Source: Chthonomonas calidirosea
Lineage (GTDB): Bacteria; Armatimonadota; Fimbriimonadia; Fimbriimonadales; Fimbriimonadaceae
Length of the DNA stretch: 35,849 nt
Assembly (NCBI GenBank): GCA_945859975.1
Contig: CAMAPH010000031.1
Location: forward strand, 1 to 35,849
Direction of reading: 5' to 3'
Positions within the stretch are counted from its first letter, which is position 1, and each line of letters opens with the position of its first letter. A program made the position numbers and the translations under genes. Shown piece after piece: positions 13,526 to 27,440 of this stretch. The notes beneath the pieces are model-generated. The model was given only the letters and a program-made list of their open reading frames with translations. It was not told the origin of the DNA and ran no database searches.

Positions 13526-14902
13526 ATGACGATTTCACGATCTACCTGGACGGCGTTGGGGCTGCTTCTCCTCGCCCACGTCATCCTCGCTTCCATCTTT
13601 GCGTCCATCACTCCATATCGCCAAAGCGGCCTCGTCACCCTCAACCGAAGCGTTGAGAAAGACATCGGCGCCCCCGACGAGCGGCAGCATGCAAACTACG
13701 TTGCTCGACTTCTCAATGGCGAAGGCTTCCCCGTTTTCAACCCGAAAGACCCGAATCTTTACGAAACCTATCAGGCCCACCAGCCCCCGCTCTTTTACGT
13801 TGTTGCGGCAGGTTTTGCCAAAGTCACCGGCGTCAACGACCCAACTGATGCGGAAACCGGGGGGCGACTGCGCTTCCTAAACGTCATCCTGGGCGCAATC
13901 GTCATTGCCGGCGTCTTCTTCCTAGGCAAGAATCTGCAACTACCCGAGCCGGCTGTTATTGCCGCCACGGCATTCGCCGCCCTTTTGCCGATGAATCTGG
14001 CGCTGAGCGGAGCGCTCAGCAACGACCCGCTCTTGTTTGCTCTCTGTACTTGGACCCTGGTCGGGCTCGCGGACGGATCACGGAACGGTTGGACCATAAA
14101 ACGCGCCGTCACCGTTGGCGTGCTGATCGGGCTGGCCTGCCTTACCAAAACCACTGCACTTGCGCTGCTTCCGGTAGCGTTCCTCGCCGTCATCCTGCCC
14201 GGTGAGCACCGGCCCGGAATCCGAGAGGCCGGGATTGCGCTCGTGCTTCCGATGCTCATCGCCGGTGGTTGGTGGCTACGAAACTTGAACCTGTACGGCG
14301 ACCCATTCGCGATTCGTGCCTTCTCCGAAGCCTTCCAAGGCTCCGCGCAAAAGGAGATGTTCGTTACTCAAATCATCCCCTCGCAGAGTCCGGAAGCAAA
14401 TCCCGAACTCGAATACTGGACGCGGTGGGTGGGCTGGTGGACGGTCAGATCATTCTATGGCGTCTTCGGCTATATGGACATTTGGATGACCCAGTCAGGA
14501 CGACAATCGCCAGACTTCGAGCAAAACCGGCTGTATTGGGTTCTCATACTCGTTGGCGCAGTTGGACTTGCCGGTGGCCTGTTTCAGGCGGCTCGAGATA
14601 AGGAAAATCGCAACCCCTCGGTTTTCCTTGTTGCTTTCGCTGCCCTCATTGGTCTGCTCTTCCTCCGATTCAACAATCAGTATTTCCAAGCTCAGGCTCG
14701 TTATCTGCTCCCCGCGCTGGCGCCGATTGCGATTTGGATTGGTAGCGGATATTCGGCCATCATGAAAAGCCGAGCAAATCTAGCGGTCGTCGTCGTTGCC
14801 ATTCCGCTGCTCCTTGCGAACGCTTTCGCCATCTCCCGGCTACCGGGTGAGTTTTCGGCCCGAATCGAGGCTGGCCGAGTTCCCGAAAGTCAGCAACCGT
14901 AA
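13526..14902 (+). CDS. GT-C (ArnT/PMT-like, DUF2142-type) membrane glycosyltransferase
   Basis: APDERQH in the first loop, HQPPLFY, SNDPL, GLACLTKTT, WWLRNLNLYGD, QARYLLP, and about 10 or more TM helices. Confidence 0.82.
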   Translation: MTISRSTWTALGLLLLAHVILASIFASITPYRQSGLVTLNRSVEKDIGAPDERQHANYVARLLNGEGFPVFNPKDPNLYETYQAHQPPLFYVVAAGFAKVTGVNDPTDAETGGRLRFLNVILGAIVIAGVFFLGKNLQLPEPAVIAATAFAALLPMNLALSGALSNDPLLFALCTWTLVGLADGSRNGWTIKRAVTVGVLIGLACLTKTTALALLPVAFLAVILPGEHRPGIREAGIALVLPMLIAGGWWLRNLNLYGDPFAIRAFSEAFQGSAQKEMFVTQIIPSQSPEANPELEYWTRWVGWWTVRSFYGVFGYMDIWMTQSGRQSPDFEQNRLYWVLILVGAVGLAGGLFQAARDKENRNPSVFLVAFAALIGLLFLRFNNQYFQAQARYLLPALAPIAIWIGSGYSAIMKSRANLAVVVVAIPLLLANAFAISRLPGEFSARIEAGRVPESQQP

Positions 14903-14909
14903 CACCACC

Positions 14910-15512
14910 ATGTCAGACCGCGTCGAAGAATCAACGGTGGCCCCATCTGCGGTCGATAAAGCGCGACTTCCTGGATTCGACGAGGACCTTGTTCTAGTTG
15001 AACGATTCCTCTCCGGGGACGAAAACGCCTTCGAGATGATTTATTCTCGTTACCACGACAAGGTTCACGCCATTGCCCGCGGCATCTTGCTCGATTCTGA
15101 CGAAGCCTCGGACGCGGTTCAAGAAATTTTCACTCTCGTTCTGCGCCACCTGCACCGATTCGACCGCCGTTCCCGATTTAGCACTTGGCTCTTCCGCGTC
15201 GCCGTAAATCGCAGCATTCAAGAAGCCCGAAAAGCCCGGCACAAGCACAAGCACGTTGAGCTGGTCGAGGCCATGGAAACCAGCGTTCCGGACCCGCCTG
15301 AGCCGGACGACGCCAAGATTCATGTCGCGATGGAGAAGCTCTCCCCGAGCGATCGCGCAATCCTTGTTTTGTTCTATTGGGAAGAGCTCAGCCTGCAGGA
15401 GATTGCGGACAGCCTCGGGTGCAATGTGAACGCCGCCAAAACCCGGCTCTACCGGGCGCGAGAGCGATTCCGCGTGATCTACGAGGAGGCAGAAGATGCG
15501 GCCGCCGCGTGA
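14910..15512 (+). CDS. ECF-subfamily RNA polymerase sigma factor
   Basis: DLVLVERFLSGDENAFE, ASDAVQEIF, FSTWLFRVAVN, and region 4 LSPSDRAILVL..LSLQEIADSLGCNVNAAKTRLYRAR. Confidence 0.93.
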   Translation: MSDRVEESTVAPSAVDKARLPGFDEDLVLVERFLSGDENAFEMIYSRYHDKVHAIARGILLDSDEASDAVQEIFTLVLRHLHRFDRRSRFSTWLFRVAVNRSIQEARKARHKHKHVELVEAMETSVPDPPEPDDAKIHVAMEKLSPSDRAILVLFYWEELSLQEIADSLGCNVNAAKTRLYRARERFRVIYEEAEDAAAA

Positions 15513-16251
15513 TCTAGACGAGCTCATGTGGGAATTGGCGGAAGGGCAAAACACCCTTGCCATCGACCAATTTTGCGTGCGCTATCCCGAATATGCCCCC
15601 GAGCTTCGGAAGCGGGCGAGCATGGTTAAGGGCCTAAAGCGCGCCAAAGTGGTTGAAGCGCCAAAGCCCGCTCAAACGCCGAAGTTCGTCCCAAGGGCAG
15701 CGCCACCGAAGCCGAGTTCCTGGGCGGTCGGCTGGACGGCTGGGCTCGTCTTGGCTGCCGTAGGGGCGATTGCCTTTGCGGTCGCCATGTTTGCTTTTCC
15801 AAACCAGAATCCGCAGGTGAAGAAGGTCGAGCCAACGCAAGTGGTCAAGAGCTTCCCCGCCGAACCGGTTCCCGAAGTCACTCCGCCAAGTCCGACCTCA
15901 CAGAACGATCCAAAGCTGTCGACCCAACCTCGACCGGAAGACCTTCCTCCCGTAACCGAGCCCGTCCCGGACTACCTAAAGCCAACCAGCGTGAGCCTGA
16001 AAGGGGCGAAGCTGACCGACGCAGTGCGCATGGTCGCCGCCCAAGGCAATCTTGGCGTTGTCGTCGCCCCGGGATTCCCCGAAATTAGCGTCGACATCAA
16101 TTACGAACAGATGAGTCCAATTGAGATCCTTCAAGCGATGGGTCGAGACTACGCGTTCACTGCCTTCGACCAAGGGGACGGCACCGTGATCGTCGTGCCC
16201 GCAGTGGAACCAACGTTAAGAGAACCGGTTTCCGCAGAAAAAATCCGCTAA
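15496..16251 (+). CDS. Putative anti-sigma factor: cytoplasmic domain, TM, Pro-rich linker, STN/FecR-C-like domain
   Basis: Overlaps the ECF gene end. One TM (WTAGLVLAAVGAIAFAVAMFAF). C-term SVSLKGAKLTDAVRMVAAQGNLGVVV..VDINYEQMSPIEILQAM resembles secretin/TonB short N-terminal domains. Confidence 0.65.
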   Translation: MRPPRDLDELMWELAEGQNTLAIDQFCVRYPEYAPELRKRASMVKGLKRAKVVEAPKPAQTPKFVPRAAPPKPSSWAVGWTAGLVLAAVGAIAFAVAMFAFPNQNPQVKKVEPTQVVKSFPAEPVPEVTPPSPTSQNDPKLSTQPRPEDLPPVTEPVPDYLKPTSVSLKGAKLTDAVRMVAAQGNLGVVVAPGFPEISVDINYEQMSPIEILQAMGRDYAFTAFDQGDGTVIVVPAVEPTLREPVSAEKIR

Positions 16252-16290
16252 CCTCGAACGCATCTGATGCTTTTCAGCGTCACCGCCCGT

Positions 16291-16299
16291 TGCTATACT
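16291..16299 (+). promoter_or_regulatory. Extended -10 promoter TGnTATACT
   Basis: TGcTATACT about 50 nt upstream of ATG 16350. Confidence 0.5.
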
Positions 16300-16349
16300 G
16301 TAGAAACCTCGGCACGGCCGCGGTCGAACGCACACGCAGATCTAGAACC

Positions 16350-17096
16350 ATGAAGCGAATTCAGAGAGTATCGGATGTCATTGAACTGATCTCAGAGAAA
16401 GCTCTGGTTTGGGGCCTCGGGGGAATTTTGTCCCTGTGCTTCTCCGCGCTGTTCTACTACTACCGTGGCCAGTCTGGCGGCACGGTGCCTCTCGCCACCG
16501 TCCTCCTGCTCATCGGACTAGGCGCGCTCGGCTACGCCATCAAACATGCCCTGACCATTCGCGAAGTCACGAAGTACGACGTCAAGTGCCCGTACTGCAA
16601 TGAGACGAACCAGGTGCTTGAGGCTCCCGAAGATGACTTCACCTGCATGTTCTGTCATCGCTTCATCCCCATCCAGGATCAGCAGCCGATGCCAGTCGCT
16701 CAGGTCCGCTGCGGTTTCTGCAACAGCCTCAACTTCTATAGTGCGAAAACGGACGTTCTCCTGTGCGAAGAGTGCAACCGCGAAGTCCCGATCGCGACTT
16801 CTGATGAGACCCGCCCGAAGAAGCAGTTGGCGGCCGCGTACGTCACCCACATCGACGACGAGCATATGTACGAATTGCTCCTCACGGATAAGGGCCACAA
16901 GCAAGAAGATTTGATCGCCGCGCTTCAGCACATGCTTGCATTAAACAGAAACCAGGTCAAGCAAATGCTCGATGAGCTGCCCGTTACTCTTTTGACCGGG
17001 ATCAATCGCCGAAAAGCAGAAATGCTCCAGGCCCAGTTGTCTCTGCATGATGCCGGCACCGAAATGCGGCAGATTTCGGACAACGCCAACCGCTGA
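16350..17096 (+). CDS. Membrane protein with four CxxC motifs (double zinc ribbon) and a ribosomal L7/L12 CTD-like domain
   Basis: Two TMs, then CPYC, CMFC, CGFC, CEEC. C-term YELLLTDKGHKQEDLIAALQHMLALNRNQVKQMLDELPVTLLTGINRRKAEMLQAQL aligns by eye to the L7/L12 CTD. Confidence 0.7.
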   Translation: MKRIQRVSDVIELISEKALVWGLGGILSLCFSALFYYYRGQSGGTVPLATVLLLIGLGALGYAIKHALTIREVTKYDVKCPYCNETNQVLEAPEDDFTCMFCHRFIPIQDQQPMPVAQVRCGFCNSLNFYSAKTDVLLCEECNREVPIATSDETRPKKQLAAAYVTHIDDEHMYELLLTDKGHKQEDLIAALQHMLALNRNQVKQMLDELPVTLLTGINRRKAEMLQAQLSLHDAGTEMRQISDNANR

Positions 17097-17221: not shown

Positions 17222-20200
17222 ATGGACTTTAATGAGCTTGCGACCGCGTTTTGCCGCCGGGCAAACGGGCGCTTTTCCCGATTTCTCCTACCTGTTCTTC
17301 TTCTCACCATCTGCCCGACTTTTGCCTTTGCCGCAGAAGGGGACCACGTCAAACTGAGCTTCTCTAGCGATGTATTGCCGTACCTCTATGCGTCCATCGG
17401 CCTCGGCGTCCTGGCCCTCATCTATGCGTTTGTCCTGATCAAACAGCTGATGGCCGAATCGCCTGGCCCAGACACGATGCAAGTCGTTGGCAAGGCGATC
17501 AAAGACGGCGCCATGGCCTATCTGCAAAAGCAGTTCTTCACGATGGCCATCGTGGCGGTCTTCCTGTTCGCCGGACTGTTCGCGCTGAACGCCTCCAGCG
17601 GACCGATTGTTGCGGGCGGAGTCGCCCTTTGCTTTGCCGCTGGTCTCCTAGGCTCGTACGCCGCGGGTTACACCGGCATGGTGATGGCGGTCAACGCAAA
17701 CATGCGCGTTGCTTTTGCCGCGCTGAGCTCCTACAAAAAGTCGCTTGAAATCGCTTTCCGAAGCGGCGCGGTCGCCGGACTCGTTACGGTCGGTATCGGC
17801 CTCATCGGCGCGACGCTGATCCTCATTTTCGGCGGCGAACAAGCCGTCAAGTACCTCGTTGGCTTCGGCTTTGGTGGCTCCCTGGCTGCGCTCTTCATGC
17901 GCGTTGGCGGCGGGATCTTCACCAAGGCTGCTGACGTTGGTGCTGACCTGGTCGGCAAAGTTGAAGCAGGAATCCCTGAAGACGACCCGCGAAACCCGGC
18001 CGTAATCGCCGATAACGTCGGCGACAACGTGGGCGACTGCGCCGGTATGGCCGCAGACGTCTTCGAGTCTTACGAAGTCACGCTCATCTCCGCTATCGTT
18101 CTGGCCGCGGCGACTTCATCAGTCTTCGATCGCGACACCTGGACGAAGCTCGTTGTCTTTGCCCTCATCGCGGCTGGAGTTGGAATCCTCAGCAGCATCA
18201 TAGGTATCGCACGAGTCAAAGGTAGCGACAACCTCGACCTCGATCCGCTGATTCCAATCCGAAAGGGCTTCATCACCGCGGTCATCATCAGCCTCGTCGG
18301 CACGAGCGCAGTTGCATTCTTCCTCCTCGGTGGCCAAAAGCCGCTGAGCACCGGCCGACTGGTGTCGGTCCGAAAGTTTGAAGTCGACGAAGCGAAGTAC
18401 TTGCAGAATCTCCGAAAAGAGATCGCGGCTCAGAGTTACAACAAGGAAGCGATCCGATCTGCCGCCGACGCCAAGGCCAAGGAACTAAAGAAGGCCTTTA
18501 AGGACCTCACTATCTTTGACCTTTACGGCGACCGGGCCAAGGTTCCTGACGCCCTTAAGGCAGTTCCTCAAGCCGTCACCGCACGGATCATCGCCGACAA
18601 GGACACCCCGGTTCTGCCGTACGAGATCACTTCTGCCGACATTCTCCAGTCGCCAAAGGCAATTGCCAAGGGCTACAAAGAAGCAGACGAGATGGTCATC
18701 ACGAGCGCACTCAACGTGAAGCTCGCCGACATGACCGTGCCAGCCTTCGAAGGCTACACCCGCGTCACCAACCCAGATGACGCCAGCATTCCGCAGCTGA
18801 AGTTCGCCGTTCCGACGCCGATGAATCCGCAGACGAACAGCACCACGCCGTTCACCACCGTTGCGGCCTTCTTCCTCGGAAAAGGCGACGATCAGCTCGT
18901 ACTGAAGAAGCTCCAGATCAAAGCGAACCTTCCCGCCCAGCCCGGCGCGAACGGCCAGCCAGGCTCCCCGGCTCGAGACATCGACCAGATCCAATGGGTT
19001 GGTCCCGTCAAGAAAGGTGAAATCGAGAAGCAGATCACTGATCAGCGAGCGCAGATTAAGCAGCAAGGCCTCAAAGCCAGCATCGACGACCTCAAAACGG
19101 TCCCGGTCGAGTTGTATGCCAACAACCAAGGCAAGCTCGCACTCGGCGTGCCTTCCGAAGTTGATCGACCGCAGACTCTGCGCGCCGGAGCAACCACGTT
19201 CTTCCCAACCGATGTGAAGACGATGGAAGCCAGCCAGCAACCGATGGCCGGAATGCCGATGGCTTCTCCACCGTTGGAGAACGTTGAGCTTGCGGTTGTG
19301 CAGAGCTACGAGGTTCCCTGGTTCCTCTTCGTGATCGCGTTCGCCGTTGGTCTGATCCTCGCTCTTGTCATCGAAAAGGTCACCGAGTACTACGTCAGCA
19401 CCGGTAAGAAGCCAACCCAGGAAGTCGCCGGCGTCTCGAGCGGCGGTGCCGCACCGATGATCATTCAGGGCTTCGCCTATGCATGTGAATCCGGTGCCTT
19501 TATGACGCTGGTCCTCGTCATCGCGCTCCTCTGCCCGATGTTCATCTTCCCTGCCGCGCTGTATGGCGGCTACGAAATGGCGATGTTCGGAATCGCGCTA
19601 GTTGGCCTCGGCCTGCTCAGCACCACCGGATACGTTCTTGCCATGGACACCTTCGGCCCGATTTCGGACAACGCCCAGGGCGTGTTCGAAATGAGCGGTG
19701 AAGGCAAAGAAAGCCCAGCCGGTATGCAGGCTGTATCTCGGCTCGACGCCGCCGGTAACACCACCAAAGCCCTCACTAAGGGCTTTGCGATTGCTACCGC
19801 CGTCGTTGCTTCGATTGCGCTCTTCAACAGCTACCGAACGGAAGCCAACTTGGCAACCATCGGATTGAAGCTTGACGTGCCGGAAATCTTCCTCGGTCTC
19901 TTGATCGGCGGAGCCGCGCCGTTCCTGTTCTCGGCCTTTGCGATTAACGCGGTCGGACGCTCGTCCTTCCAGCTCATCAACGAAGTCCGACGCCAGTTCC
20001 GCGAGAAGCCCGGCATCATGACCGGCGCCGACAAGCCGGACTATGCCCGCTGCGTTGACATCGTCACCGCCTCGGCGCAGAAGGAACTCCTCGGACCCGG
20101 AATTCTCGCGATCGCCCTCCCCATCGCCGTCGGCTTTGGATTCAGTATCGGAAAGGAACCTACCGAGATCAACGGCCAGATGTTCAATCTGGTTGGCGCT

Positions 20201-20596
20201 CAGGCTTTGGGCGGATTCCTTGCCGGTGCCATCGTCTCCGGACAGTTGATGGCAGTTCTTCTTGCGAACGCAGGCGGAATGTGGGACAACGCTAAGAAGC
20301 TGATCGAAGACGGTCAGTTCGGCGGAAAGGGCTCCGAGAACCACAAGGCATCGGTCATTTGTGACACCGTGGGAGATCCGTTCAAGGACACCGCTGGTCC
20401 AGCGCTCAACCCGCTCATCAAGGTCATGAACCTTGTCGCGCTCCTGCTCGCTGGTGTCGTCACCATGCCGCTGGAGAACACGGTGAGAATCGCTGTCACC
20501 GTCGTCTGCGTCGCCGCTCTAGGCTACGCCGTGTATTCCACAAAGAAGGGATCATTCGCAGATGATCTCAACAATGTAGGAAAATCTGAAAATTAA
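17222..20596 (+). CDS. hppA: Membrane-bound ion-translocating pyrophosphatase, K+-independent type, with large insertion
   Basis: GGGIFTKAADVGADLVGKVE, EDDPRNPAVIADNVGDNVGD, DTFGPISDNAQG, GNTTKALTKG, GGMWDNAKK, DTVGDPFKDTAGPALN. SD-like GGGGAG upstream. Confidence 0.96.
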   Translation: MDFNELATAFCRRANGRFSRFLLPVLLLTICPTFAFAAEGDHVKLSFSSDVLPYLYASIGLGVLALIYAFVLIKQLMAESPGPDTMQVVGKAIKDGAMAYLQKQFFTMAIVAVFLFAGLFALNASSGPIVAGGVALCFAAGLLGSYAAGYTGMVMAVNANMRVAFAALSSYKKSLEIAFRSGAVAGLVTVGIGLIGATLILIFGGEQAVKYLVGFGFGGSLAALFMRVGGGIFTKAADVGADLVGKVEAGIPEDDPRNPAVIADNVGDNVGDCAGMAADVFESYEVTLISAIVLAAATSSVFDRDTWTKLVVFALIAAGVGILSSIIGIARVKGSDNLDLDPLIPIRKGFITAVIISLVGTSAVAFFLLGGQKPLSTGRLVSVRKFEVDEAKYLQNLRKEIAAQSYNKEAIRSAADAKAKELKKAFKDLTIFDLYGDRAKVPDALKAVPQAVTARIIADKDTPVLPYEITSADILQSPKAIAKGYKEADEMVITSALNVKLADMTVPAFEGYTRVTNPDDASIPQLKFAVPTPMNPQTNSTTPFTTVAAFFLGKGDDQLVLKKLQIKANLPAQPGANGQPGSPARDIDQIQWVGPVKKGEIEKQITDQRAQIKQQGLKASIDDLKTVPVELYANNQGKLALGVPSEVDRPQTLRAGATTFFPTDVKTMEASQQPMAGMPMASPPLENVELAVVQSYEVPWFLFVIAFAVGLILALVIEKVTEYYVSTGKKPTQEVAGVSSGGAAPMIIQGFAYACESGAFMTLVLVIALLCPMFIFPAALYGGYEMAMFGIALVGLGLLSTTGYVLAMDTFGPISDNAQGVFEMSGEGKESPAGMQAVSRLDAAGNTTKALTKGFAIATAVVASIALFNSYRTEANLATIGLKLDVPEIFLGLLIGGAAPFLFSAFAINAVGRSSFQLINEVRRQFREKPGIMTGADKPDYARCVDIVTASAQKELLGPGILAIALPIAVGFGFSIGKEPTEINGQMFNLVGAQALGGFLAGAIVSGQLMAVLLANAGGMWDNAKKLIEDGQFGGKGSENHKASVICDTVGDPFKDTAGPALNPLIKVMNLVALLLAGVVTMPLENTVRIAVTVVCVAALGYAVYSTKKGSFADDLNNVGKSEN

Positions 20597-25364: not shown

Positions 25365-27440
25365 TTATCCGTTCGGAACCCATTTCCAGATTCCGTAACA
25401 ACTCGTCGCTACCCAGATCTCGCCTGTTTTCGGGTGGATCCGAACGCAGAACGCTTCGCGCCCTCCGTCTAGCTGCTTCTCATCGAGACGGTCTGGATCG
25501 ATCGGCTTTTGGCGCGTCAAGTTCGTCCACGTTTTGCCCGAGTCGCGCGAAATCATCACCGCCGTTGAACTCGCGTGAACGTTGCCGGCGCTCGCGATCA
25601 CTACCGTCTCAGGCTTTCGCGGATCAACCGCAATTCCGCGCACGTCGTACCAGCCGAACTGATTCTTCGGGATATCCAGTGCTACCCAAGCCCCGTTAAC
25701 AAGGACATACGGCAGTTCGTTCAGCACCGCATAGAGCCGGTCGCCCACGTGATCGTAGGCCATATCCCGGATCTCACCTTCGAAGATGGCCACCTCGCGC
25801 CAGGTCTTTCCCGAATCCGTCGAGACAACGACGGCTGCCTTCGCCCCGCGCCGAATTCCGAACAGCCGACCGTCGGGCCCAGCTGAAGCCGTAATCACGC
25901 CGCTGCAGCCGTCCATTTTTGCCCACGTCTTTCCGCCGTCTTCGCTTCGAAGATTGGAAGCAAAGATCACCTCTGGTCGGCGCGGATCGCCGAAGGAGGC
26001 GTCTTCGCCATCAAACTGGTGCGGTTGTTCTTGCCACGTTTTTCCGCCGTCAAACGAGGTTTTGAGTTTCCTTGGTGCACCCCAGCCGGCCGCGTTTCCG
26101 ACCACTAAAGTCTGCGCCGATGCCGCATAACCGCCGTAGCAGAACCCGCCCCAGCCGTTTCCGCTTGGGTTCAGGTAAGTCCATGTTTTGCCGCGATCAT
26201 TCGTGATCGCCCCGTTGTAGTCCTGCGAGCCGAAGAACATCACATCTGGCGATTGAAGGTTGAAATTGAACTTGCCGCCGACGAGAACGCCATTGTTGCC
26301 TTGATTCGACCACTTGAAGGTCGCCCCGCCATCGGAGCTTTTAGTGGCGAGATCGCCGCCGATGCTAAAGAGAACCTTCTCGTCCGTGGGACTCCAAGCA
26401 AAGATGCCCTGCCTCGTGTTCGACGGCAGGAAAGCTTGGGGAACTTCGATCTTGGATTGACGCCAAGCCTGCCCGCCATCGTCGGAGTAGTATCGCCGCC
26501 AATCCCAGGCATTAGGCTCCTGATCCCGCCAGAGCACCATCCGATCTGGATTAACCGGACTGACCTTAATGTTCTTTAAGATGTGGCCGGTCGCGGAGAT
26601 TTCGCGGCTATTCAACGGCCGCCAGGTCTTTCCTCGGTCCTCGCTTCGAAGCACTTCCGTCGGCGTGGAAATCCAGACCGTAGTTGACTGCTTCGGTGAA
26701 ACGTCGAGGCCCGTCACAATGTCTTTCGTCAGTTGCTCGAAGCTCTTTCCTTTGTCTTTAGAGACATAAAGTCCGGTTGAATTCCCGGCCAGGAGCCAGC
26801 CGGATTCCGGCAAGCAACGCAAAATGCTCCCGCCGAGCGATGCGGTATTCGGCAATTCCTGCCAGGTGTCGCCGCCATCCTCGGAGCGGTAAATCGCCGG
26901 ATGCTCTTCTGGCTTGCCCCAGCCCGCCGTGTCGCCTTTCACTCTGCTCCAAAAGACGCGCATGGTCTTTCGCGCTCCGGCGGCATAACTCGTAGGGTCA
27001 AAAGCCAGTTGCTCCCGGATTTCCCCGATTCCAGCCATCGAAATCGGCAGAACGTTGCGCCAAGATCCGCCGCGATTCGTCGACAGATAAACGCCATGGT
27101 GCCCGCCTGGCGAGGTGTTTCCCCCGATCGCAATCACTCTAAGCGGGTTGTTGGGGTCAAAGGCAATGGCAGCGGCACCGCGCGGCGAGTAGCCAACATT
27201 CGCTGGCTCCCAGCGATTCCCGGCGTCGAGCGACCGGTAGATACCGCCGACATCGATCCCGAGCATAACTGTTTTGCCCGTGGGATCAACGGCAAGGCTC
27301 CGCGGCCACTGGGCCCCTTCTCCGCCAATCTGTCCTGGCTTCCGAAACTCCCCTGCCACGAGCGGTACGGGTTCCCAGTGACCGGAAACTTTGATCTGCG
27401 CAATCGAGTGAGCATGAAGGGCGCAAAGTAGCGTGATCAT
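25365..27440 (-). CDS. Secreted BNR/Asp-box beta-propeller protein (GH74/VPS10-like)
   Basis: About 12 Asp-boxes (SxDxGxTW, e.g. SLDAGNRW, SEDGGDTW, SFDGGKTW, SRDSGKTW), GIDVGGIYRS, and a short signal peptide. Confidence 0.82.
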   Translation of the reverse strand: MITLLCALHAHSIAQIKVSGHWEPVPLVAGEFRKPGQIGGEGAQWPRSLAVDPTGKTVMLGIDVGGIYRSLDAGNRWEPANVGYSPRGAAAIAFDPNNPLRVIAIGGNTSPGGHHGVYLSTNRGGSWRNVLPISMAGIGEIREQLAFDPTSYAAGARKTMRVFWSRVKGDTAGWGKPEEHPAIYRSEDGGDTWQELPNTASLGGSILRCLPESGWLLAGNSTGLYVSKDKGKSFEQLTKDIVTGLDVSPKQSTTVWISTPTEVLRSEDRGKTWRPLNSREISATGHILKNIKVSPVNPDRMVLWRDQEPNAWDWRRYYSDDGGQAWRQSKIEVPQAFLPSNTRQGIFAWSPTDEKVLFSIGGDLATKSSDGGATFKWSNQGNNGVLVGGKFNFNLQSPDVMFFGSQDYNGAITNDRGKTWTYLNPSGNGWGGFCYGGYAASAQTLVVGNAAGWGAPRKLKTSFDGGKTWQEQPHQFDGEDASFGDPRRPEVIFASNLRSEDGGKTWAKMDGCSGVITASAGPDGRLFGIRRGAKAAVVVSTDSGKTWREVAIFEGEIRDMAYDHVGDRLYAVLNELPYVLVNGAWVALDIPKNQFGWYDVRGIAVDPRKPETVVIASAGNVHASSTAVMISRDSGKTWTNLTRQKPIDPDRLDEKQLDGGREAFCVRIHPKTGEIWVATSCYGIWKWVPNG

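Follow-up and report, generated by a model that had tools for sequence, protein, structure and literature searches.

A large domain inserted in a periplasmic loop of the Fimbriimonadales membrane pyrophosphatase

Introduction

What is a folded, soluble domain doing in the middle of an ion pump, and where did it come from? The question is raised by a 35,849-nucleotide stretch of DNA (contig CAMAPH010000031.1; the whole stretch is hereafter the window) from a freshwater Fimbriimonadaceae bacterium, in which positions 17222..20596 of the forward (+) strand encode a membrane pyrophosphatase (mPPase) of 1124 amino acids (aa). Such enzymes are usually treated as single-domain, accessory-free pumps of 650-850 residues. 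Here, alignments and a structural model identify a periplasmic domain of 328 aa (aa 370-697; 18329..19312, +), with an N-terminal helical and a C-terminal alpha/beta part, inserted between transmembrane helices 8 and 9 (TM8 and TM9). I conclude that the feature is genuine and shared across a lineage, a variant of a well-known pump bearing an unclassified domain at a mechanistically interesting site, and that the domain is a folded extracytoplasmic module on loop 8-9, able to exist alone. By analogy with the Thermotoga pump, it may act as a binding or regulatory module at the outer mouth.

Results and discussion

The mPPase gene is a single long, intact open reading frame, and nothing is unusual in the base composition along it. 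The family profile PF03030 (H_PPase) matches with an E-value of 2.2e-227 and a score of 757.2 bits (cut-off 29.7), the match being broken into two stretches at about profile position 296, the best of them covering residues 695-1076 against profile positions 296-645. When the protein is aligned to solved mPPases, residues 136-369 correspond to Vigna radiata 144-384 and residues 698-1077 to V. radiata 400-752, and the 328 residues of the insert occupy the place of 15. The TM8-TM9 loop of other mPPases, which the insert replaces, is about 10-15 residues long. The translation contains DVGADLVGK, DNVGDNVGD, DxxGDPxKD and the other cytoplasmic Asp/Lys motifs; the catalytic Asp/Lys columns line up with the motifs of the solved pumps and are invariant in an alignment of 44 orthologues. 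Furthermore, a full-length AlphaFold2 model (predicted local distance difference test, pLDDT, 86.1; predicted template modelling score, pTM, 0.78) superposes on the known structures: by Foldseek it has the 16-helix core fold of solved mPPases, and its matches to those of Thermotoga, Vigna and Pyrobaculum have E-values from 1e-25 to 1e-35 and reach TM-scores (by target) of 0.84-0.89.

The original prediction, made from the letters of this DNA, was of a giant mPPase of 1124 aa with intact catalytic motifs, and the profile score and the invariant columns bear this out. Its placement of the insert between TM8 and TM9 also holds in the alignment to solved mPPases, but its exact coordinates, 18330-19310, are one to two bases out of register: reading from 18330 meets eight stops, whereas 18329-19312 is open. 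TM8, the last helix ahead of the insert, spans aa 343-369 (18248..18328, +) in the full-length model, and the V. radiata alignment stops at 369. TM9, which runs to the TEYY motif, spans aa 701-725 (19322..19396, +) in the same model, and the alignment to solved mPPases picks up again at 698-707. The insert itself reaches a maximum hydropathy of 1.16 (19-aa window) and thus has no membrane helix.

Two trivial explanations were considered and rejected. An assembly chimera is ruled out by copies in independent records and by contigs of other studies that span both junctions. The insert is found at 97% and 100% identity in two named public records, one of which is a complete Fimbriimonadaceae chromosome, and the pump's 90% cluster has 24 members (NCBI, ENA, JGI, Logan), with 10 of the 15 listed members measuring 1123-1124 aa. 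When contigs from the runs of other studies were aligned to window positions 17900-19700, one of 14,241 nucleotides spanned 18022-19700 with 79 differences, no gap and no joint; shorter DNA contigs span each insert junction, again with no joints seen, and two contigs from a metatranscriptome library (18260-18831 and 18803-19402) span both. An intein is ruled out by the lack of any Hint, intein or homing-endonuclease family at E<=1 (Pfam, NCBIfam), in keeping with the predicted absence of intein hallmarks, and also by the Gly-Gly with which the insert opens, the Val that follows its end and the nature of its homologues, which are ordinary secreted proteins.

The fold of the domain was modelled from an alignment, A1, of 42 inserts and 12 free-standing relatives (54 rows). 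The resulting AlphaFold2 model of the insert is confident (mean pLDDT 93.6, pTM 0.86), and its secondary structure agrees with that of the insert in the full-length model. A strand leads off TM8, a helical part extends to about residue 130 of the insert, an alpha/beta part with about 10 strands follows, and the last strand leads into TM9. The first strand (aa 375-382; 18344..18367, +) and the last (aa 689-698; 19286..19315, +), both taken from the full-length model, are inferred to pair with each other. The composition that had been read from the sequence, helical and Lys/Ala-rich followed by Pro/beta-rich, is matched by modelled helices at insert residues 14-129 and mostly strands at 144-327. 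Much of the Lys/Ala-rich part is, however, a second, nested insertion specific to the subclade of the window, because the 57 aa at insert residues 34-90 (aa 403-459; 18428..18598, +), helical and confident in the model, are present in just four of the 54 sequences in A1 (the window, L003, L005 and L009).

With 60% of the 54 rows as the minimum, the conserved positions of the domain comprise Gly, Pro, Tyr/Phe, Leu, Val and Ala, together with a single Asn and a single Asp. Between two long strands lies a conserved proline-rich loop, P-x-x-P-x-x-x-G-x-P (aa 571-580; 18932..18961, +), in which P571, P574, G578 and P580 are the commonest residues of their columns, each being present in 34-40 of the 54 rows, and which is common to inserts and free-standing copies; P-V-x-L-Y-x-N-x-x-G is another conserved motif. 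Across the same rows there is no conserved Cys, His, Ser or acidic cluster, and this lack of catalytic-type residues argues for binding or scaffolding rather than catalysis. It is unlikely that the domain is an enzyme.

I was unable to connect the domain with any described family. Neither Pfam at E<=1 nor NCBIfam has a family for the insert, including any ligand-binding, peptidoglycan-binding or catalytic one, and across the 54 members of A1 Pfam gives scattered single hits, none of them shared. No family match thus singles out the sensor, the anchoring or the oligomerisation role offered by the original prediction. Against the sequences of solved structures, neither the single insert nor the A1 profile finds anything at E<=10. 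Foldseek finds no match to the insert model in the PDB at E<=0.001 (best E 0.15), a BFVD search returns none, and the ESM Atlas yields nothing usable for either the insert or a free-standing copy, the Atlas model of the latter being poor. The structural aligner VIA, run against 48,161 chains, reaches a best Z of 5.6 with insert residues 136-187 and 260-328 barely covered; a second look at 998 chains gives a best Z of 4.9. That best match, 1lxj_A (root mean square deviation 3.5 over 62 residues, within insert residues 186-259 only), is a ferredoxin-like beta-beta-alpha-beta unit, a sub-motif of about 70 residues at a noise-level score, since Z<8 is common for unrelated models. In the accessible part of the mPPase literature, no described accessory domain matches the insert, the only such domain met with there being a C-terminal OmpA-like one (PMC11210485), which agrees with the prediction of an uncharacterised domain. 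Because parts of the model are barely covered by the structural aligner and the AlphaFold database lay outside the searches, 'no recognisable relative' is a fairer wording than 'new fold'.

Nested segments are seen elsewhere in the family too. L048:443-3838 (genome G054, of family f5) carries a further segment of 63 residues within its insert, after window residue 646, and to the eye this segment looks like the ribosomal protein L7/L12 C-terminal domain. A match to PF00542 (E 4.6e-4) was obtained for a single A1 member.

How widely the insert is distributed depends on how it is sought. The labels f1-f5 denote five families of the order Fimbriimonadales (Armatimonadota). A search with the single insert sequence matched 19 of 24 genomes of the same genus and none of 16 genomes of four other families, and it missed all six f5 genomes although f5 carries a divergent insert, a failure due in part to limited sensitivity. 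A word-indexed homologue search found only the window's own protein and one relative of 59% identity. By contrast, PF03030, run over 121 genomes of the order (a tally that includes the unpublished G059), is split at about profile position 298 within frames of 1040-1351 aa in f1 and f5, and the A1 profile matches all 31 f1 and both f5 genomes and none of 267 genomes of other families in a phylum-wide sample. Among 49 mPPase genes fetched from the order, 41 have 223-337 aa between TM8 and TM9 and the other eight (from f2, f3, both f4 paralogues, G035 and G129) have only 3-41 aa there. The insert is thus present in relatives and in independent assemblies alike, as a genuine domain should be, and its frame is open in all 41 insert-bearing genes examined. 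A donor outside f1 and f5 was also sought in five genomes of f2, f3 and f4, where the A1 profile finds nothing (best E 0.335).

When the columns of the insert are left out and the root is placed on distant paralogues, the tree of the pump core puts the 38 insert-bearing genes in one clade with 99% support (Shimodaira-Hasegawa-like approximate likelihood-ratio test, SH-aLRT), and the f2 orthologues are its sister. This single clade indicates one gain followed by vertical descent: the domain was acquired once, in the common ancestor of two Fimbriimonadales families, and inherited vertically since. The tree of the insert reproduces many groupings of the core tree, and no secondary loss was seen among the genes fetched.

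Two other readings were discarded. A 1502-aa frame in G166 resembles an N-terminal fusion and is actually an upstream open-frame read-through across an opposite-strand gene. A beta-hairpin in loop 14-15, considered as a co-acquired docking partner, is also present in orthologues without the insert.

The domain also exists by itself. Searching 1.84 billion representative proteins with the insert (phmmer) gave 13 hits, eight of them pump genes or fragments and five free-standing proteins, 286-314 residues long, whose matches extend over insert residues 81-324; one free-standing protein is on record from a Fimbriimonadaceae metagenome-assembled genome. A free-standing query over 121 f1 genomes recovered the pump insert in most, together with separate frames of 271-328 aa in nine genomes, and the A1 profile matches the free-standing frames at E 1e-85 to 1e-88. 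These alignments show pump inserts and free-standing proteins to be homologous across their whole length, as one domain family. Read by eye, 11 of 12 aligned free-standing sequences are lipoprotein-like, with a hydrophobic leader, a Cys and a Gly/Ser/Asn-rich linker, and the remaining one has a membrane anchor without the Cys. The leaders of the free copies, of signal-peptide or lipoprotein type, are independent support for a domain that works outside the cytoplasm, which is where the original prediction had put it.

In G150, two tandem free copies stand directly upstream of the pump, between it and a zinc-ribbon gene, the homologue of the gene next to the pump in the window, and in G138 a free copy is also adjacent; in the window's own genome the insert was found and no free-standing copy. 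Genes for a DUF4397 protein, a radical-SAM enzyme and a GGDEF protein are among the neighbours of free-standing copies. A third architecture is seen in G088, where L064:1180-2673 (-) encodes a secreted protein of 497 aa with two tandem copies of the domain. G129 (L061, L016), an f1 genome that is 98% complete, has a distant mPPase (47% core identity) and a free copy on a long branch.

Did the free proteins precede the insert, or the reverse? In a maximum-likelihood tree the free copies are polyphyletic: six state changes are required, and branches with good support make at least four of these unavoidable. The free copies come together in none of 200 bootstrap trees, and their monophyly is rejected by the approximately unbiased (AU) test (delta lnL 190.65, p 1e-164). 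Two free copies group with an insert pair that includes the insert of their own genome (G062, support 100/100; G199, 100/99). As all free copies nest inside the f1 inserts, with f5 across the root, the simplest reading is that they arose several times from the pump insert. Gene conversion that homogenised old free genes with the insert would yield the same tree picture as repeated escape.

These free copies bear on what the domain does. It might be an envelope-binding or scaffold domain that attaches to the cell wall, the outer membrane or a protein, in which case fusion would only tether the pump and the free lipoproteins would do the same job. The lipoprotein-type leaders fit such a role, as do the free copy in G129 beside an insert-free mPPase, the secreted protein with its two tandem copies, and a conservation pattern in which the proline-rich loop is kept and catalytic residues are not; there is also precedent in the C-terminal OmpA-like domain of some mPPases, in the part of the source available (PMC11210485). 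However, the domain matches no OmpA, LysM, SPOR or other envelope-binding family (for OmpA-like families, at the sequence level, the insert has no Pfam match at E<=1 and the 54 members of A1 share none), its fast change is ill-suited to an invariant polymer such as peptidoglycan, and it was inserted beside the exit channel and not at a free terminus. I regard a simple tether as possible though doubtful.

Selection on the insert was examined through the ratio of non-synonymous to synonymous change (dN/dS). Between the window and a relative of 97% identity, the insert shows 124 synonymous and 12 non-synonymous differences, with a dN/dS of 0.017 against 0.026 for the core; the insert has ratios of 0.060 and 0.062 in two further close pairs, in which the core has 0.038 and 0.025. 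Because dS is near or past saturation in all but three pairs, only dN is usable in the others. The ratio of insert dN to core dN lies at 2.5-6.2 in nine of the ten gene pairs and at 0.83 in the pair of the window and L009. Over 703 pairs the median identity is 21% for the insert and 74% for the core. The insert is under purifying selection and yet much freer to change than the pump core.

Might the domain then be a tolerated passenger, captured by chance in a permissive loop and kept, with no added function, because its misfolding would cripple the pump? The periplasmic face does appear permissive, given an unrelated insertion of about 106 aa in loop 12-13 of the f2 pumps and the nested sub-insertions, and in nine of the ten pairs change in the insert runs 2.5-6 times faster than in the core. 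Nevertheless, it is retained at full length in all 41 genes and in two families without secondary loss among those fetched, its dN/dS in the closest pair is as low as that of the core, and copies freed from the pump are kept as well, unlike a mere passenger. I consider it very unlikely that the domain has no function.

The location of the insert offers the best clue to a role. In the Thermotoga mPPase, according to the available part of the report (PMC6530997), loop6-7, loop8-9 and loop12-13 form a cleft near the exit channel, and ATC, a synthetic allosteric inhibitor bound in that cleft, locks the exit channel closed and holds the dimer asymmetric. Since the insert grows from loop 8-9, its most likely role is that of a module for binding or regulation at the pump's outer mouth, beside the ion exit, to which I would assign a rough probability of 0.55. 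The domain would sit at or over the mouth, where it could shield or gate the release of ions; alternatively, it might couple the pump to a periplasmic or envelope partner. A bolder version would make it the first natural protein regulator of an mPPase, a periplasmic gate or sensor on the exit-channel cleft that tunes ion release or back-flow, with the escaped lipoproteins acting in trans as detachable accessory subunits, also on insert-free pumps. Taken as a whole, this version is unlikely.

Another conceivable use of the domain is as a brace in which the domains of two subunits touch each other, or neighbouring dimers, across the periplasmic face, steadying the dimer or passing on the known catalytic asymmetry between its halves. 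As far as the available text of the sources goes, mPPase homodimers are asymmetric between subunits with involvement of lumenal or periplasmic loops (PMC8657866, PMC6530997), and the ATC cleft draws on loops of both subunits (PMC6530997). On the other hand, free lipoprotein versions that look monomeric exist and, as a matter of general knowledge, ordinary mPPases dimerise by their membrane helices without any such domain. A brace seems to me distinctly unlikely.

Several points count against a binding or regulatory module at the exit or complicate the account of the pump on which it is built. The position beside the exit is carried over from the placement of loop 8-9 in Thermotoga. No conserved polar residue marks a gate or sensor site in the 54 rows of A1, and the neighbours of the free-standing genes share no common theme. 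G129 holds a free copy and its only mPPase has no insert, which argues that the domain can work outside the pump. The genome also encodes a soluble family I pyrophosphatase (G000:C8:53235-53678, a 273-aa open frame), and the pump is therefore not the sole route of pyrophosphate removal. Database names for the pump conflict, ranging over 'sodium-translocating', 'K+-stimulated sodium pump' and 'K+-insensitive proton pump'. Finally, transcription is weakly indicated, by contigs of one RNA library from a strain of about 93% identity in which DNA carry-over is possible.

At this locus a whole bacterial lineage has placed a folded domain of about 30-36 kDa in a periplasmic loop next to the ion exit and to a known allosteric site, and selection has maintained it there. 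Should the domain modulate the exit channel, it would give a natural handle on the coupling of ion release to hydrolysis, an open question for mPPases. Its soluble mass may aid cryo-electron microscopy of a small membrane protein. An internal domain that repeatedly escapes into free lipoprotein genes would also be an unusual and datable case of domain mobility.

Other features of the pump and its surroundings

The remainder of the pump is that of a recognisable subtype. At aa 845-854 (19754..19783, +) it has GNTTKALTKG, which aligns with GNTTKATTKG of the K+-insensitive H+ pump of Pyrobaculum aerophilum (8b37), its closest solved relative (E 1e-120), and with GNTTAAIGKG of the K+-dependent V. 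radiata enzyme. I take Lys and Thr in GNTT-K-x-x-T-K to be the signature of K+-independent, H+-pumping mPPases, K+-dependent pumps having Ala and Gly. NCBIfam gives the protein mixed names, and only NF001960 and TIGR01104 attain their cut-offs. Judged by its sequence, the pump is a complete mPPase of the K+-independent type and, from the signature, most likely moves H+ rather than Na+.

Both ends of the protein extend beyond the core. The N-terminal hydrophobic leader (aa 1-37; 17222..17332, +), read from the sequence, ends in A-F-A ahead of AEGD; it could be a cleavable signal peptide or an additional N-terminal helix, and its pLDDT in the full-length model is low (33-53). Most of 43 relatives have basic and hydrophobic leaders ending in A-x-A before a conserved GGENV-x-L-x-F, the counterpart of which in the window is AEGDHVKLSF; such leaders are absent from L058 and L061. 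After TM16, the model has an additional C-terminal hydrophobic helix (aa 1086-1108; 20477..20545, +), which would place the C-terminus of the pump in the cytoplasm. It is present in all aligned orthologues, insert-bearing or not, missing only from the short paralogue L058; after it come a conserved SK(K/R)GS motif and then a tail that varies. The f2 orthologues L054:500-3310 and L056:501-3326 are without the loop 8-9 insert; both carry an unrelated insertion of about 106 residues in the TM12-TM13 periplasmic loop, after window residue 880.

Just upstream of the pump, and syntenic with it, is a gene at 16290..17096 (+) for a 268-aa membrane protein with four CxxC pairs (zinc-ribbon-like), a helical C-terminal domain and no Pfam match. 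Its counterpart at the corresponding place in G150 shares 49% identity with it and has a weak DZR_2 hit. Further upstream, a gene for an extracytoplasmic function (ECF)-type sigma factor at 14796-15512 (+) overlaps by 17 bases a gene at 15496-16251 (+), whose product of 251 aa is Pro-rich, with one membrane helix and no Pfam match, and is probably the anti-sigma factor of the adjoining sigma gene. Downstream, 25365-27440 (-) encodes a 691-aa protein with BNR/Asp-box and sortilin-Vps10 repeats and adjoins a family 4 glycoside hydrolase.

Comparison with known systems

The sequences are public and the feature, as far as I could find, is undescribed. Databases list a protein of the cultured species Fimbriimonas ginsengisoli that has the same sequence as the translation of L005 (WP_025228248.1, 1172 aa; with a shorter start, AIE87874.1 / A0A068NZ33). 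Its name there is an automatic pump annotation, which leaves the insert unmentioned, and the genome paper of the species is silent on the pump. A full-text search, covering literature outside subscription journals and supplements, found no account of an mPPase longer than 810 aa or of the domain. Since a cultured species holds a relative, the function is testable.

A general parallel for the architecture is offered by Gram-negative YidC, an otherwise conserved membrane protein in which a soluble periplasmic domain (P1), large, lineage-specific and fast to change, is inserted between two membrane helices. The resemblance is by analogy only, P1 belonging to a different protein and having a beta-sandwich fold, and to my knowledge P1 has no free-standing copies. 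Among solved pumps, that of P. aerophilum (PaPPase, PDB 8b37) shares the GNTTK..TK signature with the window pump, along with every catalytic motif and the core of 16 helices. It differs in having 729 aa and a short TM8-TM9 loop, whereas the window pump has the 328-residue insert, an N-terminal leader and an extra C-terminal helix.

Oversized mPPases have been sought before. In the available part of a 2024 review that searched UniProt for them, the largest is an 810-aa protein of Paucibacter sp. with a C-terminal OmpA-like domain of unknown role (PMC11210485), about 300 aa shorter than the window pump. Both are ion-pumping pyrophosphatases with an additional extracytoplasmic domain. However, as far as that source (PMC11210485) describes it, the domain of Paucibacter is terminal, of about 110 residues and of a known peptidoglycan-binding family, whereas that of the window is internal, has 328 residues and matches no family.

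A lineage-specific element on the non-cytoplasmic face is also known from the plant vacuolar H+-PPase, whose lumenal loop 2-3 is, in the text available, proposed to regulate the exit channel and subunit asymmetry (PMC8657866). Unlike the Fimbriimonadales insert, that element has 14-19 residues, lies in another loop and is not a domain (PMC8657866). A parallel in position is the ATC cleft of Thermotoga maritima as described in the available part of its report (PMC6530997), for the inserts found here lie in loops of that cleft, 8-9 in f1 and f5 and 12-13 in f2, the latter forming another wall of the cleft beside the exit channel. Where T. maritima has short loops and a synthetic ligand (PMC6530997), in Fimbriimonadales a whole protein domain grows from the loop.

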